From an uncultured Verrucomicrobiae bacterium (GTDB taxonomy: Bacteria; Verrucomicrobiota; Verrucomicrobiia; Chthoniobacterales; JAATET01): a stretch of 64,000 nt of DNA. Below the pieces are notes generated by a model. The model was given only the letters and a program-made list of their open reading frames with translations, searched no databases and was not told where the DNA came from. The translations under genes were made by a program, and so were the position numbers. Where the stretch lies: the NCBI GenBank assembly GCA_963719495.1, contig CAVRCI010000012.1, positions 1-64,000 of the forward strand, given 5' to 3'. Below are positions 38,600 through 60,165 of the stretch, piece after piece; position 1 is the stretch's first letter, and the number at the start of each line of letters is the position of its first letter.

Positions 38600-39379
38600 C
38601 TACCGTCGCAAAGACTCGTGCGGATTATAAACCTCCCGCTGCAACTCCGGCTCCGCCTCCTTCCTCCGAAACGGCAAACCCTTCCACCACAGCTTCAGCG
38701 CCTCCCAGTGAATCCCCCCGATCACCTGTAGCGTCACGAACGGATACTTCACCGTCATCCAAATCAAATTCGAGGTCGTCAATTCCAACCGCTCTCCGGT
38801 CAGCGAAGTCACCAACTCCCGCTCATCCCCCCGCCAATCGTCGATCCAAACCCCCAACCGCTCACCCGGCACCGCGAACCGGAAATCAAACTCCAAATCC
38901 AAATCGGCAAACGGCGACACGTAAAAATGCTTCGTCACCCGCCGCTCCATCCGCCCCCCGCCAGCCGCCGGCACCAGATACAATTTCAGTTCCCGAAACG
39001 TATTCCCGACCTGAATCACCGACGCAAAAGCCAACCCACCCGCGTCGTAGCAGTAAAAAATCGTGACCGGATTGAAGATGTAGCCCACCACCCGAGGCAG
39101 CGTCAGCATCCGGATCCGATCCGGCCGCCGCGCCTCACCATTCTCCCGCAAAAACTCCTCCACCGTCCCCCGCAGACCCGCCCCGCCCAGCGAGTAATAA
39201 TCCGACTCCCGCAACGAATACAGATTCGGCTCGTTGAACCCAAACAGCGGCACCCGGTCCGTCACCTCCGCCAGCTCATCCAGATCGAGCCAGAACATGA
39301 AGATCCGATAACCAAACTCATGCCGCTTCGGCGCAAGCCGCCGGTGCATCACCGAACATTCGTAGAGGCACGATTCCAT
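38600..39379 (-). CDS. DUF1365 protein (UfaO-like)
   Basis: VMHRRLAPKRHEF, GYIFNPVTIFYC, NTFRE, KHFYVSPF, IHWEALKLW. Confidence 0.92.
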   Translation of the reverse strand: MESCLYECSVMHRRLAPKRHEFGYRIFMFWLDLDELAEVTDRVPLFGFNEPNLYSLRESDYYSLGGAGLRGTVEEFLRENGEARRPDRIRMLTLPRVVGYIFNPVTIFYCYDAGGLAFASVIQVGNTFRELKLYLVPAAGGGRMERRVTKHFYVSPFADLDLEFDFRFAVPGERLGVWIDDWRGDERELVTSLTGERLELTTSNLIWMTVKYPFVTLQVIGGIHWEALKLWWKGLPFRRKEAEPELQREVYNPHESLRR

Positions 39380-39387
39380 CGCGCCGC

Positions 39388-40668: not shown

Positions 40669-40737
40669 GCGAAGCTATCCCCATTCCAAACCCTGTCATG
40701 CTGAGCGAAGCGAAGCATCTCTGGCTTACACTAAATC

Positions 40738-41769
40738 CTAAACCGAAGACCGCCGCCGAGCACTAGCTTCATCATAAGCCGAAACCGGCACTCCACGCAG
40801 ATCCCAAACCAACCCACAAGCCGCCAACCCCTTCAGCAAGTAATAAGAAATGTCGATCTCCCACCAATAAAACCCCTGCCGGGCCGAAGCTTGAAAGTGG
40901 TGGTGATTATTGTGCCAACCCTCGCCAAGCGTTATGAGCGCGAGAATCAACGAATTCCGACTCTCGTCGTCCGTCTCATACCGCTTGCTCCCCAGCGTGT
41001 GCGCAAACGAGTTCACCGCGCAAGTCCCGTGGAAGAGCACCGTCGTGCTGATGAAAAACCCCCACACCACCATCTGCCAGGCACCCGTCCCGAGACCAGG
41101 AGCCACCGCCGCCAGCAACAGACCCAGACCGGCCATGGCGGCAATCATCAACAGCGGTCCGATCAGATCGAAACGATTGAGAAAAACCAACTCCGGATAC
41201 TTCGCGAGATCGCGCACGACTTTGTAATTCGTCGGAAAATTCCGGCTACTCGTCAGCCACCCGATGTGCGACCAGGTGAATCCCTTCTTCACGGGCGAAT
41301 GCGCATCGTGCTCCTCGTCCGAATGCTTGTGGTGATGGCGATGCACCGCCGCCCACCAGAGCGGCCCGCGCTGCACGGCCGTCAGACCGATCAGAGCAAA
41401 GATAAACTGCCCAACCCGCGACGTCCGGTAAGCCCGGTGGCAAAAATACCGATGGTAAAATCCGGTAATCGCAAACATTCGCACCAAATAAAGCGCCGCG
41501 GCGACGCCGACCGCCGTCCAACTCCAACCCACCCAGATCACTCCAAGACACCCCACGTGCAGAATCACAAACGGAATGGCCCGCGACCATTCGAAGCGCT
41601 CGGGTTTTTCGGCGACCGCCTCGGCCCCCTCCGGAAAGTAATCGGAGTCGATCTGCTGAATGAAAGCGCGTCCCACGCGCCGCCACCACGCCGGGCGCAA
41701 GCCGGAATTCTCAGTCCTCGGACTCGATACCGATGGAGCTGAGGATGCGTTGGAGGTCGTCGTTGCCAT
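40738..41769 (-). CDS. Membrane acyl-CoA/acyl-lipid delta-9 desaturase
   Basis: His boxes YHRYFCH, HRHHH and WHNNHH. Start is ATG 41769 (overlapping parB) or TTG 41700. Confidence 0.93.
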   Translation of the reverse strand: MATTTSNASSAPSVSSPRTENSGLRPAWWRRVGRAFIQQIDSDYFPEGAEAVAEKPERFEWSRAIPFVILHVGCLGVIWVGWSWTAVGVAAALYLVRMFAITGFYHRYFCHRAYRTSRVGQFIFALIGLTAVQRGPLWWAAVHRHHHKHSDEEHDAHSPVKKGFTWSHIGWLTSSRNFPTNYKVVRDLAKYPELVFLNRFDLIGPLLMIAAMAGLGLLLAAVAPGLGTGAWQMVVWGFFISTTVLFHGTCAVNSFAHTLGSKRYETDDESRNSLILALITLGEGWHNNHHHFQASARQGFYWWEIDISYYLLKGLAACGLVWDLRGVPVSAYDEASARRRSSV

Positions 41770-42607
41770 AATATTCGATGGTGATGCTGCCTTGTTTTTC
41801 ACCATGATGGACTACGACGCGGGTCGCCAGCCGGTGTTGCAATAAATTCTGAACCCGCTGGACCGCCGGTGACAAACCCGGGGCCTCTTTCGCACGTTTC
41901 CGCTCGCCGCCGTTCGACCCCTGACCCGTCTTCGCCAGATGCGCGGCCGCGAGTTTCTCCGTCGCCCGCACCGATGCCGACTGCCGGATCACCATGTCCG
42001 CCAACAACTTCTGTTCGTCGTGCGTTTTCAGCGAAAGCAGCACCTTCGCGTGGCCGACCGAGACCTGCCCCTGCCGCACCATCACCTGCACGTCGGGATG
42101 CAGATCGAGCAACCTCATCGCGTTGGCCACCGACGCGCGGCTCTTCCCCACGCGCTTGGAGATCTCCTCCTGGGTCAGGCCGAACTCCCGGGACAACCGC
42201 GAATACGCCGAGGCTTCTTCGATCGGATTGAGATCCTCGCGCTGGAGATTCTCGATGAGCGCCAGCTCCAGAACTTCCTGGTCCGAGGCCTGCCGGACGA
42301 TCGCCGGAGCCTCCAGCACACCGACCTCCTGCGCCGCCCGCCACCGCCGCTCGCCCGCGATCAGTTCGTAAACGTCGCCCGCCTTCCGCACGATGAGCGG
42401 CTGAATGATCCCGCGTTCGCGGATCGACTCGACCAACTCCGTAAGCTGGTGCGGTCGGAATTCGTGCCGGGGCTGCAGCGGGCTCGGAATGATCTTCGTC
42501 AACGCGATCACCTGGATGCGCTCGCCATTGCTCGCGGACGGCTGGGGATCCGCAACCCGAGTATTGATGAGCGCGCCGAGTCCTTTTCCGAGCGCCTGCT
42601 TTGCCAT
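41711..42607 (-). CDS. parB: Chromosome partitioning protein ParB
   Basis: ALGKGLGALI, QPR, LIAGERRWRA, ALIENLQREDLNPIEEA, HTH. Confidence 0.96.
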   Translation of the reverse strand: MAKQALGKGLGALINTRVADPQPSASNGERIQVIALTKIIPSPLQPRHEFRPHQLTELVESIRERGIIQPLIVRKAGDVYELIAGERRWRAAQEVGVLEAPAIVRQASDQEVLELALIENLQREDLNPIEEASAYSRLSREFGLTQEEISKRVGKSRASVANAMRLLDLHPDVQVMVRQGQVSVGHAKVLLSLKTHDEQKLLADMVIRQSASVRATEKLAAAHLAKTGQGSNGGERKRAKEAPGLSPAVQRVQNLLQHRLATRVVVHHGEKQGSITIEYYGNDDLQRILSSIGIESED

Positions 42608-45743: not shown

Positions 45744-46736
45744 ATGAGATCAATCACCCTCTTCACCGGCCAATGGGCCGACCTCCCGCTCGCCGAACTC
45801 CTCCCGAAGATCAAATCCTTCGGTTACGACGGCGTCGAACTCGCCTGCTGGGGCGACCACTTCGAAGTCGATCAGGCCGACGCCGCCTACTGCGAAGCCA
45901 AGCACGCCCTCCTCGCCGAGCACGGCCTCGTCTGCCACGCCATCTCGACCCACCTCGTCGGCCAGGCCGTCTGCGACCTCATCGACGAACGCCACCAAGC
46001 CATCCTCCCCCCAGCCGTCTGGGGCGACGGCGAGCCCGAAGGCGTCCGCCAGCGCGCCGCCGAAGAGGTCATCCGCACCGCCCAAGCCGCCGCCCGCTTC
46101 GGCGTGAAGGTCGTCAACGGCTTCACCGGCTCGTCCATCTGGCACCTCCTCTACGGATTTCCGCCCACCGCCCCCGGCCAGATCGAGGCCGGCTTCGCCG
46201 ATTTCGGCAGACGTTGGACCCCCATCCTCGACGCCTTCTCCGAAGCCGGCGTCCGCTTCGCCCTCGAAGTCCACCCCAGCGAAATCGCCTTCGACATCGC
46301 CTCCGCCAGACAAGCCCTCGCCGCCGTCGACCACCACCCCGCCTTCGGCTTCAACTACGACCCCTCGCACCTCGGCTACCAGGGCGTCGACTACGTCCGC
46401 TTCATCGAAGAATTCTCCGACCGCATCTTCCACGTCCACATGAAGGACGCCGCCTGGGGCCCCAACCTCGCCGACGCCGGCGTCTTCGGCGGCCACGTCC
46501 CGTTCCATTCCCCGGGCCGCTACTGGGATTTCCGCTCCGTCGGCCGCGGCAACGTCGACTTCGAACGCGTCATCCGAGCCATCAACCACATCGGCTACAC
46601 CGGCCCGCTCTCCGTCGAGTGGGAGGACGGCGGAATGGACCGCGAACACGGAGCCAAGGAAAGCTGCGAATACGTCCGCAAAATCGACTTCCCCCCATCG
46701 GACCTGGTCTTCGACGCCCAATTCGCCGACAAGTAG
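45744..46736 (+). CDS. Sugar phosphate isomerase/epimerase (TIM barrel, AP-endonuclease-2 family)
   Basis: [35 protein letters not shown]. Confidence 0.92.
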
Positions 46737-46794
46737 GGGAGCGCACGCGTCCCCGCGTGCGAGATGCGGCGTCCCGCCGCATCAAGCCCGGCAA
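46736..46794 (+). repeat. REP-like double hairpin family E, copy identical to 48930-48988
   Basis: GGGGAGCGCACGCGTCCCCGCGTGCGAGATGCGGCGTCCCGCCGCATCAAGCCCGGCAA. Variants at about 29447 and 54132. Confidence 0.85.
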
Positions 46795-46911
46795 ATCGAG
46801 CGAAGCGAGAGAGCCGAATCCGCTCAGAAGCGGCGATTTGCGATTCGCTTCGCCCGGCTCCGCATCGCTCCGGCTGCCGAACCGACCCAAACGGCGAAGC
46901 CGTCACTCCCC

Positions 46912-48150
46912 TCACAAAAGCACCCCCACCACGGTAGCCGAAAGGTAACAAGCCAGCACCCCACCCACCATCGCGCGAAGCCCGAGCCGCGCCAAATCCC
47001 CCCGCCGCTCCGGCACCAGCGACCCGATCCCGCCGATCTGAATCGCAATGCTCGACAAATTCGCGAACCCGCACAGCGCGTAAGCCGTTAGAATAAAGCT
47101 TCGTTCGTCCATCGTGTCCTTCAGCTGCGCGAGACTCAGATACCCAATGAACTCATTGAGAACGATCCGCTCGCCCAGCACCTGACCCGCCACCGCGCAA
47201 TCCTCCGCCCGGATCCCGATCACCCAGGCAAACGGCCAGTTCAACCACCCCAAAAACTGCTGCAACGTCACCGGCTCCGCCACCCCCAGCGCCGCCTGCG
47301 GAGCCGTCACCAACGCGTTGAGCAGCGCCACGATCGCCACGAACGCGATCAGCATCGCGATTACGTTGATCGCCAGCATCATCCCATCGCCCGCCCCCCG
47401 GCACAGCGCATCCAGCCCGTTCGAAGTCGTCCGCTCCACCTCCGCCGAAGCCTCCGCCCCCGTCTCACTCTCCTCCGTCTCCGGCAGCATGATCTTCGCG
47501 ATGATCAATCCAGCCGGCGCACTCAGCACCGACGCCGTCAGCAGATGCCCCGCGTCCACCCCCAGCTGCGCGTAAATCGCAAACACGCTGCTCGCCACCG
47601 TCGCGAACCCGCACGTCATGAGCGCCATCAGTTCACTCTGCGTCATCCCCTTCAAATAAGGCCGAATGAGCAACGGAGCCTCCGTCTGCCCGACAAAAAT
47701 GTTACTCGCCGCCGCCAACGTCTCGCTCCCACTCGTCCGCAGAAGTTTCCGCATCACCCAGGCCAACCCGTGGACCACTTTCTGCAAAATCCCGTAGTGG
47801 TAAAGCGCCGCCGAAATCGACGAAACCACCACGATCACCGCCGTCACCGTGACCGCGAAGACGTAGGCATTCGGGCCAAAAGCCGCCCCCAACTTCGCCC
47901 CATCCGCCAACGGCCCGAAGACCATTTGCGCCCCCACGTTCGCAAACTCCGCGATCTTCGCCACCCCCAACCGCGCCCCGCCGAAGACCGTTTTCCCCAA
48001 ATCCGTTTTCAGAATCAGCACCGCCAAAACGAACTGCAACCCGAGCCCCCAGACCACCGTCCGCCACGGAAACAACCGCTTGTGCCGCGACAACGCCCAA
48101 GCCAACCCCAGCATCACCACCAATCCCAGAAGACTCGTTAACTGCAACAT
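46912..48150 (-). CDS. Concentrative nucleoside transporter (NupC/CNT family)
   Basis: WRTVVWGLGLQ, NIFVGQTEAPL, LNEFIGY, LCGFANLSSIAIQIGG. Confidence 0.93.
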   Translation of the reverse strand: MLQLTSLLGLVVMLGLAWALSRHKRLFPWRTVVWGLGLQFVLAVLILKTDLGKTVFGGARLGVAKIAEFANVGAQMVFGPLADGAKLGAAFGPNAYVFAVTVTAVIVVVSSISAALYHYGILQKVVHGLAWVMRKLLRTSGSETLAAASNIFVGQTEAPLLIRPYLKGMTQSELMALMTCGFATVASSVFAIYAQLGVDAGHLLTASVLSAPAGLIIAKIMLPETEESETGAEASAEVERTTSNGLDALCRGAGDGMMLAINVIAMLIAFVAIVALLNALVTAPQAALGVAEPVTLQQFLGWLNWPFAWVIGIRAEDCAVAGQVLGERIVLNEFIGYLSLAQLKDTMDERSFILTAYALCGFANLSSIAIQIGGIGSLVPERRGDLARLGLRAMVGGVLACYLSATVVGVLL

Positions 48151-48183
48151 CCCCACCCCTTTAAGCAATTCCCATTCCCCAAA

Positions 48184-48241
48184 CCGCCACCCCTTGCAAA
48201 ACTCCGATGCGGCCGCATCGGAGTTTTGCAAGGGGTGGCGG
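48184..48241. repeat. Perfect 58-bp palindrome in a divergent promoter region
   Basis: CCGCCACCCCTTGCAAAACTCCGATGCGG|CCGCATCGGAGTTTTGCAAGGGGTGGCGG, with no loop and no mismatch. Confidence 0.95.
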
Positions 48242-48299
48242 CTGATTCGACGTCGGGCTGGCCAAATTTCGCCCACCCCGCCTAGTCTCCCGCCGCGCC

Positions 48300-48926
48300 A
48301 TGCAAGAAGCCTTCACGAATTGGATGACCGAGAGCATGACGTGGATCGAGGCCAGCGGCTGGGTGGGCTGGTTCGGGTTCATCGTCCTTTACGCCATCAC
48401 GTGCGTCTTCCTGCTCCCCGGCTCCCTCCTCACCGTCGGCGCCGGAGCCGCCTACGGCTTCTGGTCCGGCACCCTCCTCGTCACCATCGCCTCCGTCGCC
48501 GGAGCCGCCCTCAACTTCGCCACCAGCCGCTACCTCGTCCACAATTGGTTCCAGCGAAAATTCGCCCACAGCCCGAAATTCCGCGCCCTCGACCGAGCCA
48601 TCGCCCACGGCGGCTGGCGCATCGTCCTCCTCAGCCGCCTCTCCCCGGTCCTCCCCCACAGCCTCGTCAGCTACGCCTGCGGACTCACGACCATCTCCAT
48701 GACCCGATTCACCCTCGCATCGTGGATCGGTTTCATCCCCATCAGCGCCGCCTACGCCTACACCGGAGCCCTATTGGGAAAAATCGCGAGAGCCAAAGCC
48801 GGCCTCCCCCACGGAATCGAATCCTGGATCCTCTACGGCCTGGGCCTGGCAGCCACAATCGCCGTAACCGTCTATTCAGCAAAAATCGCCAACGAAGCCC
48901 TCCGAACAAAGGTCGACATCGAGTAG
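48300..48926 (+). CDS. TVP38/TMEM64 (VTT/DedA-like) membrane protein
   Basis: LPGSLLTVGAGAAYG, F..SRY, LSRLSPVLP, YACGLT. Confidence 0.92.
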   Translation: MQEAFTNWMTESMTWIEASGWVGWFGFIVLYAITCVFLLPGSLLTVGAGAAYGFWSGTLLVTIASVAGAALNFATSRYLVHNWFQRKFAHSPKFRALDRAIAHGGWRIVLLSRLSPVLPHSLVSYACGLTTISMTRFTLASWIGFIPISAAYAYTGALLGKIARAKAGLPHGIESWILYGLGLAATIAVTVYSAKIANEALRTKVDIE

Positions 48927-49070
48927 AGCGGGGAGCGCACGCGTCCCCGCGTGCGAGATGCGGCGTCCCGCCGCATCAAGCCCGGCAACCCGCGCCAGCG
49001 GGAGCCGCCCGCCCTCCACCAGTCACCAATCACCAATCACCAATCACGCCGTAACCGGCCCCTCCACCAA

Positions 49071-51020
49071 TCACGCGACAAACTGCCGGTGCAAAATCTG
49101 CAAACACAACAAGTGGTTAAGCAAAGCATCCTTCCGCACCAGCGAAGCCGAGTCGCCATCCGCCCGATACCCGTCCAAAAACGCCCCAACCCGCCCCGCG
49201 TCGAACAACCCAGCCTCCCGCACGCTCCCCTCGTCCAGATACTTGTCGGTCAAAGCCCGCACCGCTTGCTGCTTTTTCACGTCGGTATGCGCCGGCGGAG
49301 CCATGAACGAAAACTTCTCCCGCTTATACAACACCTCCGGCAACACCCCCCGCACCGCCTCCCGCAGCACGTGCTTTTCGATGTTCCCCTTGATTCGCAA
49401 ATTCGGTGGCACGTGAACCGCCGCCTCCGCCACGTGGTGATCGAGAAACGCCGGTCGCGACTCCATCGAGTTCGCCATATCCACCCGGTCGCCGCCCCAG
49501 TTGAGAATCTGACTCTCCAGCATCGTCTTGCTCCACGTGTATTGCGACTTATCCAGCGGATGCCGCCCGCGCACCATCGACGGGTCGATTTCGCCCGCGA
49601 TCGCCGCCACCGGATCGTAAGCCCCGATCTCCTCGGCCGCGTCATCACTCAGCAAAGGCCGCGCGATCCCCAGCGTCGCGATCCAACTCTGAATCCATGC
49701 CGGCGTGAACCCGCACAAATCCTCCCAGGCTGGATGCGTCTCCGCCTGCTCGGAAAGCAAAGCCCCCTTGAAGATCGCGTTGAATTTCTCGAGCGCCGCC
49801 TCGTATTCCCGCCGCACGCTTGCCGGCTCGTCCGCCAGTCCGTGTTGAAACATGTCGCGCTTGAAAAACGCGTAGCCGCCGAAAAGCTCGTCCGCCCCCT
49901 CGCCCGTGATCACCGTCTTGTAGCCCGCGTCCCGCACGTGCTGGCTCATGCAATACTTCGCCACGCCCAGCGTGTTGTAGAACGACCGTTCCGTGTGCCA
50001 CACCGTCCGCTCGTAATTCTCGCCGTAAAGCTCCGCCGCCTGCAGCTTGATCACGTCGTGATCCGCCCCGACGCTCGCCGCCATCTCGCGCGCGATCACC
50101 GATTCATCGTAGTCGTCGCTGTCGAAGCTAATGGTAAACGCCTTCACCGGACTTTGCATCGCACCCGAAGCCATCCCGAGGATGCAACAGCTGTCGATGC
50201 CGCCCGAAAGATAACACCCCACCGGCACGTCCGCCTCGAGCCGATGCCCGACGGCCTCGACCAATTCCTTGCGAATCGTCGCCACGTGGTCCGCTTCCGA
50301 GCGCCCTGGGTCCCGCGCGTCCGCCTCCGGAAATTCCAGGTCCCAATACCGCCGCTCCTCCACGTCCAGCCGGTCGCCCCGCCGCTTCACGATCACCATG
50401 TGCCCCGGCTTCACGGCCTTGATGCCCTCGAACGCACTGGTCCCGAGCACCATCGTTTGCATCATCTGATTCAGCGCCGCCCGCCGATCCATCCGGCACG
50501 GAACGTCCGGATGCGCGAGCAGCACCTTGACCTCTGACCCAAAGTAAATCCCCTTCTCGGAAACGTGGTAAAACAAAGGCCGCACCCCGAAGCGATCCCG
50601 CACCAAGGCTAAACGATCCTCCTTCCGATCATACAGTGCGAAGGCAAATTCCCCCCGAATCTGCGGCATGAGATCCAGCCCATACTTGCGATACAACGGC
50701 ATCACCAACTCGCTGTCCGACTTCGTCACGAATCGCTCGCCCTCCGTCATCAGCGTCGACCGGATCCGCTTGTAATCGTAGAGCTCCCCGTTCATCACCA
50801 TCGACAAATCGTCGTCGCCGCTGGACAGCGGCTGACAACCCGTGTGCAGATCGACGATCGTCAACCGCGCGTGCCCCAGAGCCAAGCCCAGCTTGGGATC
50901 TACCTTCGTCCCGCGCCCATCCGGCCCACGGTGACGCTGCACGTCGATCATCCGGTTGAGGGCGCGTTCGTCGTCGGGCGCGAGGCCCGTCGGTTTGAAA
51001 AATCCGGCAATTCCGCACAT
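49071..51020 (-). CDS. Asparagine synthase-like glutamine amidotransferase (AsnB family)
   Basis: MCGIAG (Ntn Cys), HRGPD, HARL.IVD, NGELY, RDRFGVRPL, LSGGIDS, TGEGADELFGGY. Confidence 0.95.
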   Translation of the reverse strand: MCGIAGFFKPTGLAPDDERALNRMIDVQRHRGPDGRGTKVDPKLGLALGHARLTIVDLHTGCQPLSSGDDDLSMVMNGELYDYKRIRSTLMTEGERFVTKSDSELVMPLYRKYGLDLMPQIRGEFAFALYDRKEDRLALVRDRFGVRPLFYHVSEKGIYFGSEVKVLLAHPDVPCRMDRRAALNQMMQTMVLGTSAFEGIKAVKPGHMVIVKRRGDRLDVEERRYWDLEFPEADARDPGRSEADHVATIRKELVEAVGHRLEADVPVGCYLSGGIDSCCILGMASGAMQSPVKAFTISFDSDDYDESVIAREMAASVGADHDVIKLQAAELYGENYERTVWHTERSFYNTLGVAKYCMSQHVRDAGYKTVITGEGADELFGGYAFFKRDMFQHGLADEPASVRREYEAALEKFNAIFKGALLSEQAETHPAWEDLCGFTPAWIQSWIATLGIARPLLSDDAAEEIGAYDPVAAIAGEIDPSMVRGRHPLDKSQYTWSKTMLESQILNWGGDRVDMANSMESRPAFLDHHVAEAAVHVPPNLRIKGNIEKHVLREAVRGVLPEVLYKREKFSFMAPPAHTDVKKQQAVRALTDKYLDEGSVREAGLFDAGRVGAFLDGYRADGDSASLVRKDALLNHLLCLQILHRQFVA

Positions 51021-51027
51021 AAGAAGA

Positions 51028-52116
51028 TTAGCTAAGTGGAAGATTCTCGGGCAGCCGATTGCACCTGCCCATCACCGCCGTCAGCAGCGCCTGACGAATG
51101 AAGACCGCCCCGTGCGCCTGCGACCAGTAGAGATTGTGCGGCGTCCGATCCAGACTCGTGTCCAGCTCCTCGAGCCTCGCAAGCGGATGCAGAATGACCG
51201 CGCCATCCTTGAGTTCGCTGTCCGCGTCGAGGCGGAACCTGGAGTCCAGATTTTTGTAACCATCGCCGACCTGCACGATGGAGTTCATGTAGATCACGTC
51301 CAATTCCGGAAGGCAGTTTTCGATGTCGTTCGTGATCTCGGACTCGAAACTCGCCGCCGCGATGTCGTTCGCCAGCTCCTCGCCGAACGGATCGGCCATC
51401 TCCGAAACGAACGTGATCTTTTCGATGTGTTCCTGAAAGAGCAACGCCATGTGAACGAAACTCTTCACCGCCCGCATGCTCCCCGGCGTCCCGAGCACCC
51501 CAATCCGGAGCCGCTCCGAGACCGGCTCGCGCTTGGCTAATTCAGGACGCCACTTCAGCAGCGCATACCAATCCGCCATGGCCTGAGTCGGGTGGTCGCC
51601 CGTGCCGTTTCCGGCGTTGATCAACGGCAGGCGCAGATTTTTCATGATCCGCTCCGGCGCGTCCGCTTCGGTGTGCCGCATGATCACGCAATCGCCGTAG
51701 GCGTTGAACATTTCGCCGATGTCCTCGAGCGATTCCCCCTTCTTCACTCCCGTCGTCTTCCCGTCCGGGATGCTAATGATTCGCCCGTCGAGCCGCAGCA
51801 CCGCGCTCTCGAACGACAACCGCGTCCGCGTGCTCGCCTCGAAGAACGCCGTGATCACGATGTATTTGTCCAACGGCCGGTGTGGCCCAATTTCAATCGC
51901 CTCCAACACCGAGGCCAGCTTGCAAAGCTCGACGATCTCCGTCCGCGAGAATTGCTTCACCGACAGCACGCTGCGAAACGCCATCCCCTGCAGCACCTCG
52001 AGGTCGATGTTCGTCCGCCGAAAGAGCGAATTTGCCTCCGGGTGCAAAGACAGCGACTCCGGCGGCGGCGCGAGCACCTCGAGCAACCGATTCGGTTTGA
52101 ACGTCGGCGCGTCCAT
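51028..52116 (-). CDS. Aspartate-carbamoyltransferase-like transcarbamylase, substrate probably not aspartate
   Basis: FFEASTRTRLSF, KGESLED, IMRH and HPTQ are retained. The second-substrate motifs are altered (DVIYMNSIV, HPLA). Confidence 0.88.
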   Translation of the reverse strand: MDAPTFKPNRLLEVLAPPPESLSLHPEANSLFRRTNIDLEVLQGMAFRSVLSVKQFSRTEIVELCKLASVLEAIEIGPHRPLDKYIVITAFFEASTRTRLSFESAVLRLDGRIISIPDGKTTGVKKGESLEDIGEMFNAYGDCVIMRHTEADAPERIMKNLRLPLINAGNGTGDHPTQAMADWYALLKWRPELAKREPVSERLRIGVLGTPGSMRAVKSFVHMALLFQEHIEKITFVSEMADPFGEELANDIAAASFESEITNDIENCLPELDVIYMNSIVQVGDGYKNLDSRFRLDADSELKDGAVILHPLARLEELDTSLDRTPHNLYWSQAHGAVFIRQALLTAVMGRCNRLPENLPLS

Positions 52117-52235
52117 CACCAAACGCGTCCTTTCCGGTGATCCCGCCAGATCATCGCGATCAGCGTCACCGCGCCAGCCGACGTCCAGATCAGCGCGGTC
52201 CAAATGAGAATTTCGACGAAGGTGAGTGCAAACAT
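52116..52235 (-). CDS. 39-aa single-TM microprotein (not in the ORF track)
   Basis: MFALTFVEILIWTALIWTSAGAVTLIAMIWRDHRKGRVW*. It starts 4 nt after the symporter stop, and its TGA overlaps the next ATG (TGATG). Confidence 0.75.
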   Translation of the reverse strand: MFALTFVEILIWTALIWTSAGAVTLIAMIWRDHRKGRVW

Positions 52236-52239
52236 GGCG

Positions 52240-53661
52240 TTAGTGTTCGTTGAGGGTCTTCCAATCGAATGGGTCGGGTCGCAAAGCCGTCGTCACGAGC
52301 ACCGTCACCATCGACACCGCCGCGCTGATCAGCGACGCCGAGAACCAACCAATCTGATAATACGCGATCAACCCGATCACCGACCCCAGCAACATCGCCG
52401 CCGTCGCACCCGCTCGCGACGTCCGCGGAAAATACAACCCGGACACGATTGGCCAGATCGTGCTCGCGACCAGCGGCCCCGAAAGAAAGAGCACCGTAAT
52501 GAGATCGCCCACGTTCGGCAGACAGATCCCCCAAGTCAGCACCCCCAACCCCACGATCACCCAGGTCGAAGCTCGGCGCACCGTCGCCTCGCTGGCCGCC
52601 GGATTGAACGCCTTCCGGTAAATGTCCTCCGTCACCAGATCCGCCGTCGCCGCCAGCAGGCTGTCGATGCTCGAAGCCAGCGAACAGAACAGCACGATGA
52701 ACACCAGGATCGAACCCACTCCCCCCAGCACCTGACTCGCCACCAGCGGCCCGACCATGTCCGGGTCCGCCGCGTTGATCCCCAACGGCCCCGCGCAAAG
52801 CCCGATGAACCCCGCCGCAATCGGAATCGGGAACCACAGCACCCCCGAAATAAGAAACGCCTTCAGCGGCACCCCCTTCCGCATGGCAAAGGCCCGACTC
52901 CACCACACGTTGTTGTGAAAGACCTCGCCGAACCCGAAGAACAGATTGTTGAACAGCGCCAGCAGCGCCACCGGCATGAATACATGCAGCAAAGTCGGCT
53001 GATCCGCCGAGATCGACGTGTAAACCGCCTCGACGTCGATCCGCATGAGCACGACCACACCGACCACCACGATCCCGACGAGAATGATGACGCTCTGAAT
53101 AAAATCCGTCCCGATCACCGCGTAAAGCCCGCCGAAGAGCGTGTAGGTAATGCAAACGAACAAAATCGCCGACATCCCGTATTCGTAAGGAATCCCCGAC
53201 AGCGCCTGCAGAAATTTCCCGCCTGCCATTGCCATGCTCACCAGCCACGCCATCGAATAAACCAGCGAAATCACCAAAAACAGCCCCCAGGCCACCCGCC
53301 CGAACCGCAGCCGCACGAAGTCACCGCTCGTGTAGCCATTCGGCATCAAGTCGCGAATCCTGTGCGCCATCGGCGCAAACAGAAACAACCCGAAACTCGC
53401 CGTCGAATAAGCCAGCATCCCCCAGATCCCCATCTTCATCGCGAAGACCGGCGCGAGCATCACCGTGCTCGACGTCACCCACGTCGCCATCGCCGTCGCC
53501 GCCGAGAGAGCCAACCCGACGTTCCGCCCCGCGAGCATGAACCCATCCAGATTGACCGCCTTCTTCCCCCAATAAACCCCCAACCCGATCCAGATCACGC
53601 CAAAGACCGCGAGCAGCAGATAGCCCATTCCAGGATCGAGCACGGAGCTTTGCAAATTCAT
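52240..53661 (-). CDS. Sodium:solute symporter (SSS; DUR3/urea-transporter-like)
   Basis: About 13 TMs; FMLAGRNVG, YTLFGGLYAVIGTDFIQ, SLASSIDSLLAA. Confidence 0.92.
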   Translation of the reverse strand: MNLQSSVLDPGMGYLLLAVFGVIWIGLGVYWGKKAVNLDGFMLAGRNVGLALSAATAMATWVTSSTVMLAPVFAMKMGIWGMLAYSTASFGLFLFAPMAHRIRDLMPNGYTSGDFVRLRFGRVAWGLFLVISLVYSMAWLVSMAMAGGKFLQALSGIPYEYGMSAILFVCITYTLFGGLYAVIGTDFIQSVIILVGIVVVGVVVLMRIDVEAVYTSISADQPTLLHVFMPVALLALFNNLFFGFGEVFHNNVWWSRAFAMRKGVPLKAFLISGVLWFPIPIAAGFIGLCAGPLGINAADPDMVGPLVASQVLGGVGSILVFIVLFCSLASSIDSLLAATADLVTEDIYRKAFNPAASEATVRRASTWVIVGLGVLTWGICLPNVGDLITVLFLSGPLVASTIWPIVSGLYFPRTSRAGATAAMLLGSVIGLIAYYQIGWFSASLISAAVSMVTVLVTTALRPDPFDWKTLNEH

Positions 53662-54140
53662 CAGACGAGTTCCTCCCCGGCCTGCTGCCGCCGAAATCCC
53701 CTCACCACGGTCGACACCGTCAGCCCAAACACCGTCAATCCGACGCCCAGGAGCGTCCAAACCTTCCAAGCCGCTGGGTATTCCACGAGCACGTCCAGCG
53801 TCTCCGACCAAGGACCCCCAACCGCCCGCACCCGGAACGAATGCGTCCCATCCGGCAGCCCCGAAGCAAAGAACGCCAAATCCGGCCCCACGTAGCGAAC
53901 CTTCTCACCTTCAACGACTTCGTAATCCACCGCCCCCGCGACCGCCAACCAATTGAGCAGAACGTGGCCCTCCCCCGCGACCACCGGCTCCGTCATTTCC
54001 CAGCGCGGAGCCTCCAGAGCCAACGCCGAACCAATCAGCAAAAACGCAACAAAAACTCGAATGGGGATCGAAAAAGCGATGCTCCCACCGTGAAAAACGA
54101 ACTCCCGAACATCAAGCAAAAGCCGGGAGACAGGGAGCAC
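53661..54140 (-). CDS. Small exported FN3-like protein with C-terminal TM anchor (start uncertain)
   Basis: Signal-like FVAFLLIGSALA; LNW..V.GA..YEV...SGLPDGTHSFRVRA FN3 pattern; C-terminal TM; its stop overlaps the SSS ATG. Confidence 0.7.
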   Translation of the reverse strand: MLPVSRLLLDVREFVFHGGSIAFSIPIRVFVAFLLIGSALALEAPRWEMTEPVVAGEGHVLLNWLAVAGAVDYEVVEGEKVRYVGPDLAFFASGLPDGTHSFRVRAVGGPWSETLDVLVEYPAAWKVWTLLGVGLTVFGLTVSTVVRGFRRQQAGEELV

Positions 54141-54295
54141 ACCCGTCCCGGGTGTGAGCTTCGGCGTCCCCGCCGAAGCCTCGTTCCAAAACGCGAAGCG
54201 TCACTTCCCCCTTCACCCGCATCCATTCGCGTCCATTCGCGTGTTTAGCGGGTCCCTCACCCGATTTGCCAACCTCCCCGCCCACCTGTTAACCA

Positions 54296-55585
54296 TTGGC
54301 GGTGCCACCCGAAAACACCCGCGCCACCCCGCTCGCCGACCTCCGCGTCGACCCGAAGCGCCTCCGCGAAGACCTCCGCACCCTCTCCGCCTTCGGTTAC
54401 AACGACACCGACCACGGCATCTACCGCATGGCGTTCACCGAGGCCGACCTCGCCGCCCGCCATTGGCTGCAGGACGAAATGCGCGCCCTCGGCATGGCCG
54501 TCCGCATCGACGGAGCCGCCAACGTCATCGGCCACTGGCCGCCCCACGACACCCGGCCCGCCGTTATCCTCGGTTCCCACACCGACACCGTCCCCTGCGG
54601 CGGCCACCTCGACGGCAACCTCGGCGTCCTCTGCGGCCTCGAAGCCGCCCGCGTCCTCATCGAAGCCGACGTCCAGCTCGACCGCCCCATCGAAGTCATC
54701 TCCTTCTCCGACGAAGAGGGTCGTTTCGGCGGCATGCTCGGATCCGAAGCCTTCACCGGTCGCCTCACCCCCGAGCGCCTCCTCGGAGCCATCGATTTAA
54801 CCGGCACCCGCCTCGCCGACGCGATGATCGCTCGCGGCCTCGAACCCACCGCCGCCCTCGACGCCCGCCGCGAACCCTCCAGTATCCACGCCTTCCTCGA
54901 ACTCCACATCGAGCAAGGCCCCGTCCTCGACGCCGCCCGCAAGCAGCTCGGCATCGTCGACCAGATCACCGGCCTCTTCCGCTGGTCCGCCCGCCTCTTC
55001 GGCAAACCCAACCACGCCGGCACCACCCCCATGAACCTCCGCCAGGACGCCTTTCTGGGCCTGGCCGAATTCGCCAACGAAATCCCTCGCGTCCTCGAGG
55101 AAAACGGCAGCGACCGCAGCCGCGCCACCATCGGCAACGTCGAACTCACCCCCGGCGCCGCGAACACCATCCCGGGCTGCGCGGAATTCTCGCTCGACGT
55201 CCGCGACACCGACCCCGACACCCTCGAAGAGCTCTCCCGCGCCTTCCGCAAGGCCCTCTCCGCCATCGCCCGCCGTCACGACCTCCGCTTCGAATTCGAC
55301 GAAGTCTCCCGCATCGCCCCCCGGCCCTGCGCCCCCGCCGTCGTCGACGCCCTCCGCCGCCAAGCCGAGCGGCTCGAGACCACCTTCGAAGTCATGCCCA
55401 GCGGCGCCGCCCACGATTCCCAGCTTCTCGCCGAGATTTGTCCCGTCGGCATGATCTTCGTCCCCAGCCGCGACGGCCAGAGCCACTCGCCCGCCGAATG
55501 GACCGCCTGGCAGGACGTCGAAGCCGGTGCCAACGTCCTCCTCCAAACCGCACTCGAACTCACCCGCACTGAAATCGAACGATGA
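54296..55585 (+). CDS. M20 Zn-dependent N-carbamoyl-L-amino-acid amidohydrolase (hydantoinase/carbamoylase family amidase)
   Basis: GSHTDTV, LDGNLG, DEEG, ELHIEQGP, NHAGTTPM, SGAAHD, SHSPAE. Confidence 0.93.
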   Translation: MAVPPENTRATPLADLRVDPKRLREDLRTLSAFGYNDTDHGIYRMAFTEADLAARHWLQDEMRALGMAVRIDGAANVIGHWPPHDTRPAVILGSHTDTVPCGGHLDGNLGVLCGLEAARVLIEADVQLDRPIEVISFSDEEGRFGGMLGSEAFTGRLTPERLLGAIDLTGTRLADAMIARGLEPTAALDARREPSSIHAFLELHIEQGPVLDAARKQLGIVDQITGLFRWSARLFGKPNHAGTTPMNLRQDAFLGLAEFANEIPRVLEENGSDRSRATIGNVELTPGAANTIPGCAEFSLDVRDTDPDTLEELSRAFRKALSAIARRHDLRFEFDEVSRIAPRPCAPAVVDALRRQAERLETTFEVMPSGAAHDSQLLAEICPVGMIFVPSRDGQSHSPAEWTAWQDVEAGANVLLQTALELTRTEIER

Positions 55586-56319
55586 AAATTACCGACGCCA
55601 CCGACCGCGATCCGCTCCTCGACCTCTACAAAAGCTCCCTCGGCGAGGAAAACCCAGCCCACCACTGGATGCTGGCCCGCCAGCAGACCGCGCTCCTTTG
55701 CATCGACATGCAATACCTCGACGCCGCCCGCGGCCACGGCATCTTCCGCGACGCCACCTCCTCCGGCGTCCCGCTCGAGGACCAGGAATACTACTTCTCC
55801 ACCCTCGAAGGCCGCGTCATCCCCCGCCTCCGCCGCCTCCAGGACACCTTCCGCCGCGCCGAACTCGAAGTCATCCACGTCCGCATCCAGGCCCTCACCG
55901 CCGACGGACGCGACCGTTCCAAGGGCCACAAACGCCTCGGCGTCCTCGCCGGCCCCGGCACCCGCGAAGCCGATTTCCTCGAAGCCGTCGCCCCCCAAGG
56001 CGACGAAATCGTCATCAACAAGACCGCCAGCGGCGTCTTCTCCGCCACGAACATCAATTTCGTCCTGAAAAATCTCGGCATTACCGCCGTCTACGTCGCC
56101 GGCGTCTACACCAACGAATGCGTGGAAACGACGATCCGCGACGCCTGCGACCTCGGCTACCTCGTCACCATGGTCGACGACTGCTGCACGACCGTGACCC
56201 CCGAACTCCAACGCGCCTCCATCGCCGTCCTCCGCGACCGCTACGCCCGCATCCTCTCCAGCGACGACGCCATCGCCGAGATCCAGTCCATCGAGGCGGA
56301 ACGGCAACCCGCCGCGTAA
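55582..56319 (+). CDS. Isochorismatase-family cysteine hydrolase (amidase)
   Basis: Intact D-K-C triad: IDMQ, INKTASGVF, YTNECVETT. ATGA overlap with the M20 gene. Confidence 0.92.
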   Translation: MKITDATDRDPLLDLYKSSLGEENPAHHWMLARQQTALLCIDMQYLDAARGHGIFRDATSSGVPLEDQEYYFSTLEGRVIPRLRRLQDTFRRAELEVIHVRIQALTADGRDRSKGHKRLGVLAGPGTREADFLEAVAPQGDEIVINKTASGVFSATNINFVLKNLGITAVYVAGVYTNECVETTIRDACDLGYLVTMVDDCCTTVTPELQRASIAVLRDRYARILSSDDAIAEIQSIEAERQPAA

Positions 56320-56644
56320 TCAGACCGAGCGAAGCAAAGCCATCCTCCAAAAAAACTGTCATGTTGAGCGAAGCGAAGCATCTCTGGCTTCTCAGGCGTG
56401 ACGGCCCGCAACCAGAAACGAGCCAGAGATATTTCGCTCCGCTCAATATAACAGGTTTTGGAAAAAGGCCGTCTTCCCAACCAGGGTCAATCCTCTCCTC
56501 CACGCCTCACTTTCCAATCGACGCCGCCCTTCCTCCACCCAGCATCACCCCACCCCCCCGGAAAAGAGATTCACGCCCACGCCGCCTCGTGCGTATCCTT
56601 CGACAGATACCAGCAACCGCAAATTTTTACTTAAAAGCCATCCC

Positions 56645-57766
56645 ATGCCCACCATCGCCAAAGGACTCGAAGGAATCATCGCAAACTCGACCTCGCTCAG
56701 CGAAGTCATGGGAGCCGAGGGCATCCTCATCTACTCCGGCTACAACATCAACGACCTCGCCGGAAACGTCACTTTCGAGGAAATCGTCCACCTCCTCTGG
56801 CGCGGACACCTCCCCAACCGCGCCGAACTCGACGCCCTCACCGCGGAACTCCGCGCCCAGCGTGAACTCCCCGCCGGTGTTATCGAATTTCTCGAAACCG
56901 CCCCCAAAGACGCGGGCCCGATGGACGTCATCCGCACCGCCGTCTCCATGCTCGGCCTCTACGACCACGTCACCGGCGACGACGCCGAGGCCAACCAACA
57001 CCGCGCTGTCAGCATCACGTCGAAGATGGGCGTGATCGCCGCCTACTACCACCGCGCCCGCCAGGGTCTGGAGCTCCCCGCCGTCCGCGACGACCTCGGC
57101 GAAGCCGCCCACTTCCTCTACCTCCTCAACGGCGAGGAACCCACCGCCGAGATGGAACGAACCCTCGACGTCGCCTACGTCCTCCACGCCGACCACGGCA
57201 TGAACGCCTCGACCTTCTCCGCCCGCGTCACCATCGCCACCCTCAGCGACATTTTCTCCGCCATCACCTCCGCCATCGGCACCCTCAAGGGTCCCCTCCA
57301 CGGCGGGGCCAACGAAGGCGTCATCCACATGCTCCAGGAGATCGGCAGCGTCGACGCCGTCGACGCCTGGGTCGACGACGCCCTCGAAAACAAAAAGAAG
57401 ATCATGGGCATCGGCCACCGCGTTTACAAAACGCTCGACCCCCGCGCCCCCCACCTCCGCACCATGGCCATCAAGCTCTGCGAACAACTCGGCGAGCAGA
57501 AGTGGATCAAGATGAGCGAGCGGATCGCCGAGATCATGCGCGAGAAGAAGGAACTCAACGCCAACGTCGATTTCTACTCCGCCACGGTCTACTACTCGCT
57601 CGGCGTCCCGACCGACATGTTCACGCCGATCTTCGCGATTTCCCGCGCCGCGGGTTGGACCGCCCACGTCCTCGAGCAGCTCTCCGACAACCGCCTCTAC
57701 CGCCCCCTCAGCGAATACGTCGGCCCCGAAGTCGGCAAGAAAGTCGTCCCCATCGACGAACGGTAG
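56645..57766 (+). CDS. gltA: Citrate synthase (type I/short form)
   Basis: KGLEGI, LHADHGMNASTF, GPLHGGAN, IMGIGHRVY, NVDFYS. Confidence 0.93.
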   Translation: MPTIAKGLEGIIANSTSLSEVMGAEGILIYSGYNINDLAGNVTFEEIVHLLWRGHLPNRAELDALTAELRAQRELPAGVIEFLETAPKDAGPMDVIRTAVSMLGLYDHVTGDDAEANQHRAVSITSKMGVIAAYYHRARQGLELPAVRDDLGEAAHFLYLLNGEEPTAEMERTLDVAYVLHADHGMNASTFSARVTIATLSDIFSAITSAIGTLKGPLHGGANEGVIHMLQEIGSVDAVDAWVDDALENKKKIMGIGHRVYKTLDPRAPHLRTMAIKLCEQLGEQKWIKMSERIAEIMREKKELNANVDFYSATVYYSLGVPTDMFTPIFAISRAAGWTAHVLEQLSDNRLYRPLSEYVGPEVGKKVVPIDER

Positions 57767-57777
57767 GTTGCGGGTGG

Positions 57778-57857
57778 GTCGAGAGACGAGGGTCGAGGGT
57801 CGAGCGCTAATGAGTTCACCCTCAGGCCCTCGACTCTCGACGCTCGACCCTCGACTC
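57778..57857. repeat. Inverted (GTCGAGG)n / (CCTCGAC)n heptamer arrays
   Basis: GTCGAGAGACGAGGGTCGAGGGTCGAG ... CCCTCGACTCTCGACGCTCGACCCTCGAC. Confidence 0.7.
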
Positions 57858-57912
57858 ATCAAAAGGCCCGATTCTCGTTCGGTCTCACGGAAAACCCTGC
57901 TAGCGTCCGCCC

Positions 57913-60165
57913 ATGAATCCATCCCTGCTCTCCGACGCGGACTATTATCCGTTGGTCGAAGCCCGGCACGACGACCCCTTCCGCATCCTCGGCATCCGCG
58001 GCACCGATAAGGCCAAAATCGCCCGCGTCTTCCGCCCCGACGCCAAGTCCGTCACCCTCGTCGAATCCGGCGGATCCGAGCGCAAGATCGAGTTGAATCG
58101 CGCCGGCGACGGCGGCGTCTTCGAAGCCGAGCTCGGCAAGGACGCCCCCATCGGCTATCACCTCGATTACACCGGATTCAACGGCGAGACTTGGTCCCAG
58201 CTCGACCCCTACGCCTTCGGCCCCGTCCTCGGCGAGATGGACATCTACCTCTTCGGCGAGGGCACCCATTACGACGTTTACAAGAAGCTCGGCGCCCACC
58301 CGATCGAGCACGACGGTGTTCGCGGCGTCCACTTCGCCGTCTGGGCCCCAAATGCCCAGCGCGTCAGCGTCGTCGGCGACCTCAACCACTGGGACGGTCG
58401 CGTCCACCCCATGCGGAAGATTCTCTCCGCTGGCATCTGGGAAATTTTCATCCCTGAGCTCGGCGAAGGTGACCACTACAAATTCGAAATCCGCGGCCCG
58501 CAGGGCGACGTCAACCTCAAGACCGATCCCTTCGCGACCTACGCCCAGCACGGCACCTCCACCGGCTGCATGGTCTTCGACCTCGACCGCTACAAGTGGG
58601 ACGACGGCGACTGGATGAAGGCCCGCGAAACCCGCGACCATCTCAATTCCCCCATGAGCGTCTACGAGGTGCACCTCGGCTCCTGGCAGCGCGTGAGCGA
58701 GGATGGCAATCGCGAGCTCAGCTACCGCGAACTCGCCGACCGCCTCATCCCCTACACCAAGGAAATGGGCTTCACCCACCTCGAGCTCATGCCCGTGATG
58801 GAGCATCCGTTCGACGGCTCCTGGGGCTACCAGGTCACGAATTACTACGCGCCCACCAGCCGCTTCGGTAATCCCGACGAATTCCGCAACTTCGTGGACC
58901 GCTGCCACCAGGAAGGCATCGGCGTCATCCTCGACTGGGTCCCCGGCCATTTCCCCAAGGACGCCCACGGCCTCGCGAAATACGACGGCACCTGCCTCTA
59001 CGAGCACGAGGACCCGCGCCTCGGCGAGCACATGGATTGGGGCACCCTCATTTTCAACTACGGGCGCAACGAGGTGAAAAACTTCCTCATCGGCAACGCC
59101 CTCTACTGGATGGACGAATACCACGTCGACGGCCTCCGCGTGGACGCGGTCGCGTCGATGCTCTACCTCGACTACTCCCGCAAAGCCGGCGAATGGGTGC
59201 CCAACCGCTTCGGCGGACGCGAGAACCTCGAAGCCGTCGATTTCCTCAAGCGCTGCAACGAAGTCTGCTACGAGCGCTTCCCCGGCATCGTGACCATCGC
59301 CGAGGAATCCACCTCCTACCCCGGCGTCTCCAAGCCGACCTACCTCGGCGGCCTCGGCTTCGGCTTCAAGTGGAACATGGGCTGGATGAACGACTCCCTG
59401 CGCTACATCGCGCTCGACCCCATCCACCGCCGCTACCACCAGAGCGAGATCACCTTCTCGATGGTCTACGCCTTCTCCGAGCACTTCATGCTCGTCCTCA
59501 GCCACGACGAAGTCGTCCACGGCAAGGGCTCGATGATCGGGAAAATGCCCGGCGACGATTGGCAGAAGTTCGCCAATCTCCGCATGTTCATCGCCTGGAT
59601 GTGGGGCCACCCCGGCAAAAAGCTCATCTTCCAGGGCATGGAATTCGGCCAATTCGCCGAGTGGAACCACGCCCGCAGCATCGACTGGCACCTCAAGGAC
59701 TCCCACCTCAACGCCGGCATGAGCCGCCTCGTGCAGCACCTCAACTGGCTCTACCGCAGCGAACCCGCCCTCTTCGACCAAGACGATTCCTACGACGGAT
59801 TCGAGTGGATCGACTTCAGCGACGCCGACAACACCGTCTGGTCCTTCATGCGCAAGTCGAAGGACGGCGATAAGCTCGTCTTTATCGTCAACGCCACCCC
59901 GGTGGTCCGGCCAAATTACCGCGTCGGCGTGCCACTCGGCGGATTCTACGCGGAAATTCTCAACACCGACGCCGGCAACTACGGCGGCAGCAACGTCGGG
60001 AACTACGGCGGCAAATACGCCGATCAGCAACGCTGGCAGGACCGCGACCACTCGATCCTCGTCGACCTCCCACCCCTCGCCGTTGTCGCCTTCAAATACC
60101 GGGACAATGCCCCCTCCACCCCGGCACTCGAAGCGACCCCAAAACCGAAGGCCCTCGAGACCTGA
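57913..60165 (+). CDS. glgB: 1,4-alpha-glucan branching enzyme
   Basis: FAVWAPNA, YEVHLGSW, SWGYQ, LDWVPGHF, LRVDAVASM, IAEES, LSHDEVVHGK. Confidence 0.98.
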   Translation: MNPSLLSDADYYPLVEARHDDPFRILGIRGTDKAKIARVFRPDAKSVTLVESGGSERKIELNRAGDGGVFEAELGKDAPIGYHLDYTGFNGETWSQLDPYAFGPVLGEMDIYLFGEGTHYDVYKKLGAHPIEHDGVRGVHFAVWAPNAQRVSVVGDLNHWDGRVHPMRKILSAGIWEIFIPELGEGDHYKFEIRGPQGDVNLKTDPFATYAQHGTSTGCMVFDLDRYKWDDGDWMKARETRDHLNSPMSVYEVHLGSWQRVSEDGNRELSYRELADRLIPYTKEMGFTHLELMPVMEHPFDGSWGYQVTNYYAPTSRFGNPDEFRNFVDRCHQEGIGVILDWVPGHFPKDAHGLAKYDGTCLYEHEDPRLGEHMDWGTLIFNYGRNEVKNFLIGNALYWMDEYHVDGLRVDAVASMLYLDYSRKAGEWVPNRFGGRENLEAVDFLKRCNEVCYERFPGIVTIAEESTSYPGVSKPTYLGGLGFGFKWNMGWMNDSLRYIALDPIHRRYHQSEITFSMVYAFSEHFMLVLSHDEVVHGKGSMIGKMPGDDWQKFANLRMFIAWMWGHPGKKLIFQGMEFGQFAEWNHARSIDWHLKDSHLNAGMSRLVQHLNWLYRSEPALFDQDDSYDGFEWIDFSDADNTVWSFMRKSKDGDKLVFIVNATPVVRPNYRVGVPLGGFYAEILNTDAGNYGGSNVGNYGGKYADQQRWQDRDHSILVDLPPLAVVAFKYRDNAPSTPALEATPKPKALET

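Follow-up and report, generated by a model that had tools for sequence, protein, structure and literature searches.

Transcarbamylase Paralogues and Related Pathways

Among proteins annotated as aspartate transcarbamylase (ATCase, PyrB) are mis-annotated paralogues, which Barba et al. (2013) described as "pseudo-ATCases" (PMC4016543). Genes of the marine subgroup in that study lie between a Na+ symporter gene and a gene for a "putative asparaginase," with an N-carbamoylase gene next, and subgroup 3 of the text comprises Rhodopirellula baltica RB13301 and proteins from Nitrosococcus oceani, Synechococcus WH 8102, and Kangiella koreensis. One row of the motif table pairs HPLA with AIA, AIS, or SIA. 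The sections of the paper that deal with the marine pseudo-ATCases propose no function for them, and a literature search for the term "pseudo-ATCase" found this paper alone. Table 1 of the paper lists HPLA under "pseudo-ATCase 1," and subgroup 1 of the text is ureidoglycine transcarbamylase (UGTCase). Given that Shi et al. report H(T/S)LP as the UGTCase motif (PMC4581275), the table labels have probably been rotated against the numbering used in the text and in Figure 5. The HPLA row was matched to the marine subgroup because UGTCase has this other motif and HSLP/V-x-P proteins exist separately.

UGTCase (Rxyl_2847) provides a precedent for an ATCase-derived enzyme with an altered acceptor. 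It has lost two ligands of the ATCase acceptor site, Arg229 and Gln231, retains equivalents of Lys84 and Arg167, and takes an acceptor with a neutral side chain (PMC4581275). A second precedent is the compatible solute NAGGN, which is made by capping the amino group first and amidating the carboxylate last, using AsnO; the NAGGN operon of Pseudomonas aeruginosa is repressed by a MarR protein (PMC8070244). A third comes from Ectothiorhodospira marismortui, where N-carbamoyl-L-glutamine 1-amide is a known solute; the parts of the two papers that describe this solute give no biosynthetic genes for it (PMC1224877, PMC3857566).

A Transcarbamylase with an Altered Acceptor Site

The window analyzed here is a stretch of 64,000 nt from an uncultured Verrucomicrobiae bacterium. 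An unbroken reading frame at 51028-52116 on the minus strand encodes a 362-aa transcarbamylase of the HPLA pseudo-ATCase type, identified by its motifs, both transcarbamylase domains, the columns of its homologues, and AlphaFold2 models. The translation includes STRT (residues 95-98), KGES (126-129), MRH (146-148), HPTQ (175-178), and SMRAV (213-217), with DVIYMNSIV (273-281) and HPLAR (310-314) on the acceptor side. Scored against the active-site list of Shi et al., which uses E. coli numbering (PMC4581275), the protein has the complete carbamoyl-phosphate site (S-T-R-T, R105, H134, and Q137). The equivalents of Lys84 and Arg167, which bind the alpha-carboxylate, are kept in 247/247 homologues (K126) and 246/247 (R215); the 247 are 121 close homologues, the query counted in, plus 120 from a second homologue search and 6 distant ones. 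A first-pass annotation of this DNA had listed these motifs, and each of them is present.

The same annotation had read DVIYMNSIV as the counterpart of DILYMTRVQ in E. coli PyrB, and HPLA as that of HPLP. HMMER alignment against solved ATCases bears this out, pairing DVIYMNSIVQ with DVLYMTRVQK or DILYMTRVQK, and HPLAR with HPLPR, in ungapped columns. Because there are no gaps, Ser279 and Val281 occupy the positions of Arg229 and Gln231. The R-x-Q-x-E-R motif of the 240s loop, described as present in all known ATCases (PMC4581275), occurs in 0 of the 247 homologues, and the query reads NSIVQVG in its place. The replacement is not the drift of a single sequence: arginine occupies column 279 in none of the 247. 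All members have Asn278 and Met214, and column 313 is alanine in 244 and serine in 3. The 63 reference ATCases used for comparison were chosen by their R-x-Q motif, such that its presence in 63/63 is by construction.

Relative to PyrB of the ATC II type, the HPLA enzyme shares the fold, the carbamoyl-phosphate site, Lys84, and Arg167. It differs in that Thr228, Arg229, Gln231, Glu233, and Arg234 are replaced by Asn, Ser, Val, Val, and Gly, respectively, Gly166 by Met, and Pro268 by Ala. The 240s loop is three to five residues shorter, and there is an N-terminal extension of about 40 residues. Neither signature of ornithine transcarbamylase (OTCase), DxxxSMG or HCLP, occurs in the 362-aa protein, as the first-pass annotation had stated, and the HP[LG]P motif of ATCase is likewise missing, the sequence there being HPLA. 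The protein falls below both NCBIfam ATCase cut-offs (174.7 bits against 236.95 for TIGR00670, and 169.9 against 263 for a second model). Two AlphaFold2 models (pLDDT 87.3 and 91.9) have the ATCase fold, and a fold search aligns the first with PALA-bound E. coli ATCase at a Z score of 37.0 and an rmsd of 1.9 Å over 301 residues. The 240s loop is the weak part of the models (pLDDT 50 and 63), drawn as a short beta-hairpin. Matches in the ESM Atlas are limited to clusters named ATCase.

A neutral acceptor side chain, as proposed in the first-pass annotation, appears to be the best reading of these substitutions. That proposal came with the caveat that equivalents of Arg229 and Gln231 might lie elsewhere in the structure. 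A check at the level of sequence found no family-specific conserved arginine or lysine in the 240s loop, and the residue at column 218 (His170 in E. coli) is a candidate. This column is lysine or arginine in 247/247 members, and the residue could reach an acidic side chain; arginine also occurs there in 11 of the 63 true ATCases.

Genomic Distribution and Phylogeny

The source genome, which is 98.6% complete, encodes three transcarbamylases: an OTCase (argF) with both SMG and HCLP, an ATCase (pyrB) with RIQHER and HPGP that adjoins a dihydroorotase-like ORF, and the HPLA enzyme. All 10 of the other carriers examined likewise have a separate HPGP ATCase (11 of 11 with the source genome; carrier G262 was left out of this check). 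Since a genuine pyrB lies elsewhere in the genome, the HPLA enzyme is not needed for pyrimidine synthesis; it is not the ATCase of the cell. No pyr genes occur among its recurring neighbors. The idea of a second, weak ATCase draws on the fact that ATCases are the best sequence and fold matches and that public names agree, but is scarcely credible given these two observations and the missing R-x-Q-x-E-R motif in 247/247 members.

A quick IQ-TREE analysis of 59 hand-picked sequences, with SH-aLRT support only, places the family and a degenerate offshoot in one long-branched clade (SH-aLRT 100) among ATC II enzymes. This clade is separate from the other pseudo-ATCases sampled and includes a Kangiella protein (P0356). 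On the strength of motifs, gene context, and tree, we reject reading the protein as a true ATCase, an OTCase, or a UGTCase. The first-pass annotation was correct that the protein is mis-annotated: public sources name it ATCase.

Of 301 genomes from the class of the source genome, 12 carry a member, the source genome being one of them. The gammaproteobacterial class of a Lysobacterales genome yielded 24 carriers in 400 genomes, and the class of a Hyphomicrobiales genome 2 in 301. Further carriers among named records belong to Planctomycetota, Bacteroidia, Acidobacteriota, Polyangiaceae, and other groups, and most carriers with names come from marine or saline genera. In a plasmid collection, no family member was present among the best 30 of 113 matches, all 30 of which were ordinary-pyrB-like proteins of 30-33% identity.

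Organization of the Gene Cassette

The transcarbamylase gene is the third of four genes on the minus strand. The first (53661-54140, start codon uncertain) encodes a small membrane protein, and the second (52240-53661) a 473-aa sodium:solute symporter of the SSS family (Pfam SSF), whose ATG start, read from the sequence, overlaps the stop codon of the small-protein gene. The fourth (49071-51020) starts 7 nt past the transcarbamylase stop codon and encodes a 649-aa AsnB-type glutamine-dependent amidotransferase (Pfam Asn_synthase and GATase_7). Divergent from this run are two plus-strand genes. One (54296-55585) encodes an M20 N-carbamoyl-amino-acid hydrolase that scores above the cut-offs of TIGR01879 and NF006771, has 3n5f as its best PDB match, and reaches 397 bits on the model for ErtE, an N-carbamyl-L-glutamate amidohydrolase, where the cut-off is 520. 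The other (55582-56319), which overlaps the M20 stop codon by 4 nt, encodes an isochorismatase-family cysteine hydrolase, an amidase (Pfam Isochorismatase), with conserved Asp-Lys-Cys triad columns; it falls below the cut-off for biuret hydrolase, and its PDB matches are cysteine hydrolases.

The small membrane protein is hydrophobic at its N-terminus, resembles an Ig/fibronectin-III domain in its middle part, and carries a membrane segment at its C-terminus. It belongs to no Pfam or NCBIfam family; a feature match of 0.94 to an ESM Atlas cluster automatically named "fibronectin type III" offers a lead. Its gene is a conserved cassette partner, usually operon-joined to the symporter or M20 gene, and the protein is possibly an accessory subunit of the transporter. 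No Rfam matches were found in 46000-58000, and a promoter and terminator scan gave no excess over shuffled sequences.

Elsewhere in the source genome, a broken second M20 copy (G000:C9:53413-54076, minus strand; 76-80% identical, frameshifted, and partial) adjoins a transposase-like ORF in the vicinity of the rplA-rpoB cluster. A separate run of several ORFs lies at 38600-41805 of the window, also on the minus strand; from their translations, these presumably encode a fatty-acid desaturase, an FAD-dependent oxidoreductase, and a DUF1365-like protein.

Motifs, neighbors, and the congeneric Kangiella protein place the HPLA transcarbamylase in the marine group of Barba et al. Like those proteins, it has STRT, HPTQ, and HPLA, with a genuine pyrB elsewhere, a Na+ symporter on one side, an asparagine-related enzyme on the other, and an N-carbamoylase nearby. 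The SIA-type motif of the 240s loop reads SIV here, SIA in 103 of the 121 close homologues, and AIA, AIS, or SIA in the proteobacterial branch. There is no essential difference, except that the neighbor named as an asparaginase is an AsnB-type synthetase here. The first-pass annotation had proposed a new subfamily; the subfamily, with the same motifs and neighbors, and its mis-annotation have been in print since 2013 (PMC4016543), and the oddity of the sequence is therefore not new. What is added here is the AsnB-type identity of the "asparaginase" neighbor and its near-constant partnership with the transcarbamylase. Most of the evidence on function is carried by neighboring genes, which the first-pass annotation did not use.

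The Amidotransferase and the Symporter

The neighbor named asparaginase by Barba et al. is, judged by its residues, an intact AsnB-type amidotransferase. Cys1, SGGIDS, and GEGxDE are all present, and 56-57 of the 57 cassette copies retain Cys1, the PP-loop, and GEGxDE. The protein passes TIGR01536, "asparagine synthase," with 416 bits (cut-off 267), but this model is not specific, because NAGGN amidotransferases pass it too. It misses both the AsnB model NF006949 (cut-off 499) and the NAGGN model TIGR03104 (300 bits against 570). In 56 of 57 copies, NTLG or NTLA is found at the position of TTIR in E. coli AsnB. We take the arginine of TTIR to be the aspartate-binding Arg325, and the amidotransferase would thus lack that residue.

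The nearest solved relatives of the symporter are DUR3 urea transporters (E 1e-31 in the PDB, against 2e-07 for the next family). In Aspergillus UreA, D286 is needed for urea uptake (PMC4077062). With the register taken from a DUR3 alignment, the D286 column appears to be asparagine or serine in the cassette symporter, which suggests that its solute is a related but different ureido compound.

Conservation of the Neighborhood

Evidence for a functional link between the transcarbamylase and the amidotransferase comes from the comparison of 65 genome loci, of which 3 were repeats, leaving 62 distinct loci; related genomes in this set are not independent, and one of the 24 gammaproteobacterial carriers (G578) was left out. 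The amidotransferase gene lies directly downstream of the transcarbamylase gene, in the same direction, in 59 of the 62, and the other 3 loci stop at contig ends. The pair was also found in 24 of 27 intact metagenome loci, with the remaining 3 at a contig edge. The symporter is present in 59/62 loci and the small protein in 55/62. The M20 enzyme was seen in at least 46/62 and the cysteine hydrolase in at least 42/62; these counts are floors because contig ends truncate many loci, and the hydrolase genes are optional or rearranged. Among 300 gammaproteobacterial genomes, the symporter occurs in 20, of which 19 are known carriers of the transcarbamylase and the twentieth has it at a contig end. 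Since the symporter is almost confined to carriers, it appears to travel with synthesis.

Less frequent neighbors point to osmotic control. Glycine/sarcosine methyltransferase genes occur in 4/62 loci, and at one locus (L147:834-8565, minus strand) the amidotransferase, GSMT, SDMT, MetK, and ProVWX genes form a single run, in which the amidotransferase and methyltransferase genes overlap by 4 nt. MscS-type genes occur in 3/62 loci and a MarR gene in 17/62. In 250 gammaproteobacterial genomes, the best 30 loci for the cassette MarR clade include 9 beside ectA/ectB, 6 beside the cassette, and 3 beside an AsnB-type gene; two of these three AsnB-type genes were scanned, and both encode NAGGN amidotransferases. 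It is these links to betaine genes, ProVWX, MscS, and a MarR clade of the ectAB/NAGGN type that indicate osmotic control. The source genome itself has no close MarR copy (best E 3.8e-6) and no GSMT. GlnK-like genes lie near, but not adjacent to, 3/62 loci.

Five loci (L025, L029, L033, L162, and L163) have a further gene next to a MarR gene of this clade. At three of them, an unnamed SAM-dependent methyltransferase gene separates the MarR gene from the cassette; at the other two, which have no cassette in view, an ORF of similar appearance comes after the MarR gene.

A Proposed Route to a Carbamoyl-Amino-Acid Amide

We lean toward a model in which the cassette makes an uncharged carbamoyl-amino-acid amide that serves osmotic adjustment. 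In the first of two biosynthetic steps, the transcarbamylase would use carbamoyl phosphate to carbamoylate the alpha-amino group of an L-amino acid whose alpha-carboxylate is free and whose side chain is neutral; L-glutamine is the most likely acceptor. The AsnB-type enzyme would then convert the alpha-carboxylate to an amide, using ATP and glutamine. Leaked solute would be recovered by the symporter. The two hydrolases, the cysteine-type and the M20 enzyme, would recycle the compound by stripping its amide and carbamoyl caps. The exact product may, more tentatively, be N-carbamoyl-L-glutamine 1-amide.

The direction of the pathway is suggested by the fixed partner, an ATP-consuming amidotransferase, which argues for synthesis. 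Synthesis is further favored because carbamate kinase above the TIGR00746 cut-off was found in none of six carriers searched and the source genome encodes carbamoyl-phosphate synthetase. The step order follows from the retained Lys84 and Arg167 equivalents, from which we infer that the acceptor keeps its alpha-carboxylate, such that carbamoylation would come first and amidation second. The logic parallels that of NAGGN (Ngg and AsnO), where the amino group is capped and the carboxylate is then amidated by an AsnB-type enzyme, and MarR control in relatives is a further likeness. The differences are that the cap would be a carbamoyl group from a transcarbamylase rather than an acetyl group from a GNAT enzyme, and that the cassette has no peptide ligase.

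A literature search, with subscription journals and theses outside its scope, found nothing linking this cassette to a carbamoyl-glutamine-amide solute, and the biosynthetic genes of that solute may be new to the literature searched. The name Ectothiorhodospira does not occur among the 360 matches listed, a weak negative given that few of these carry organism names. If the model is correct, it would supply the genes for an orphan compatible solute, extend the transcarbamylase family to a new acceptor, and correct pyrB and asnB annotations across many marine genomes.

Alternative Acceptors and Roles

What favors glutamine as the acceptor is pathway logic, and glutamate and asparagine are also candidates. 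The acceptor could be L-glutamate, with one or both carboxylates then amidated, or the amidotransferase could act first to produce asparagine for N-carbamoyl-asparagine. The basic residue at column 218 would suit an acidic acceptor, the M20 enzyme scores appreciably on the ErtE model, and the amidotransferase passes the "asparagine synthase" model. Each of these observations has a counterpart: arginine at column 218 is shared with some true ATCases, the ErtE and AsnB cut-offs (520 and 499) are both missed, and the TTIR arginine of AsnB is replaced. Taken together, these data make either version unlikely.

The same chemistry could instead provide a nitrogen store, with the uncharged carbamoyl amide made when nitrogen is ample and hydrolyzed when it is short. 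Storage is an alternative role because the product is rich in nitrogen: the glutamine compound has four nitrogens on six carbons, both hydrolases would release ammonia, and the nearest solved transporter is DUR3. Additional support comes from R. baltica SH1, which carries RB13301 (PMC4016543). In the results reported from 800-MHz NMR of R. baltica solutes, only glutamate, sucrose, trehalose, and glucosylglycerates appear, and a minor solute could have been missed because compounds were identified against literature shifts (PMC3694870). RB13301 is missing from the regulated-gene lists of a salt-shock microarray study, which contain only its small neighbors RB13300 and RB13294 (PMC2754498). These solute and salt-shock data count against the osmolyte model and are consistent with storage. 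The lack of a close MarR copy and of GSMT in the source genome also counts against the osmolyte model. The betaine-synthesis, ProVWX, MscS, and MarR links point instead to osmotic control, and the sparse, non-adjacent GlnK-like genes offer little sign of nitrogen control. A nitrogen store is therefore rather improbable as the primary role, and osmotic adjustment is preferred.

Catabolism of the UGTCase kind, in which the transcarbamylase phosphorolyzes a ureido compound taken up by the symporter and so yields carbamoyl phosphate, has a pseudo-ATCase precedent in UGTCase itself (PMC4016543) and would account for a DUR3-like transporter alongside two ureido/amide hydrolases. UGTCase differs, however, in having H(T/S)LP rather than HPLA and in its carbamate kinase and allantoinase neighbors, and the HPLA clade lies apart from the other pseudo-ATCases sampled. 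Carbamate kinase was not found in any of the six carriers, phosphorolysis would be superfluous next to a hydrolytic carbamoylase, the constant partner is a biosynthetic enzyme, and the transporter is almost confined to enzyme carriers (19 of 20, the twentieth being at a contig end). A catabolic role is thus highly improbable.

Degenerate and Divergent Paralogues

The degenerate clade nested within the HPLA family (SH-aLRT 100) lacks STRT, KGE, HPTQ, and HPLA. Its proteins (P0141, P0142, P0154, P0158, P0159, P0164-P0166, P0196, P0210, P0235, and P0251; loci L194-L196, L210, and L302-L305) are full length, keep the other conserved columns of the fold, and are named ATCase by public sources. They probably represent a catalytically dead transcarbamylase maintained under selection. 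Such paralogues occur in 4 of 400 gammaproteobacterial genomes. They were considered as partner subunits of the intact enzyme, an idea that found no support: an intact cassette is present in only one of the four genomes, and the eight loci have no neighbors in common.

A separate type of pseudo-ATCase, with HSLP and with EPVVQ at the R-x-Q position, was observed at L047, L049, L050, and L053, in four verrucomicrobial genomes, and fits the HSLP/VXP row in the table of Barba et al. (PMC4016543).
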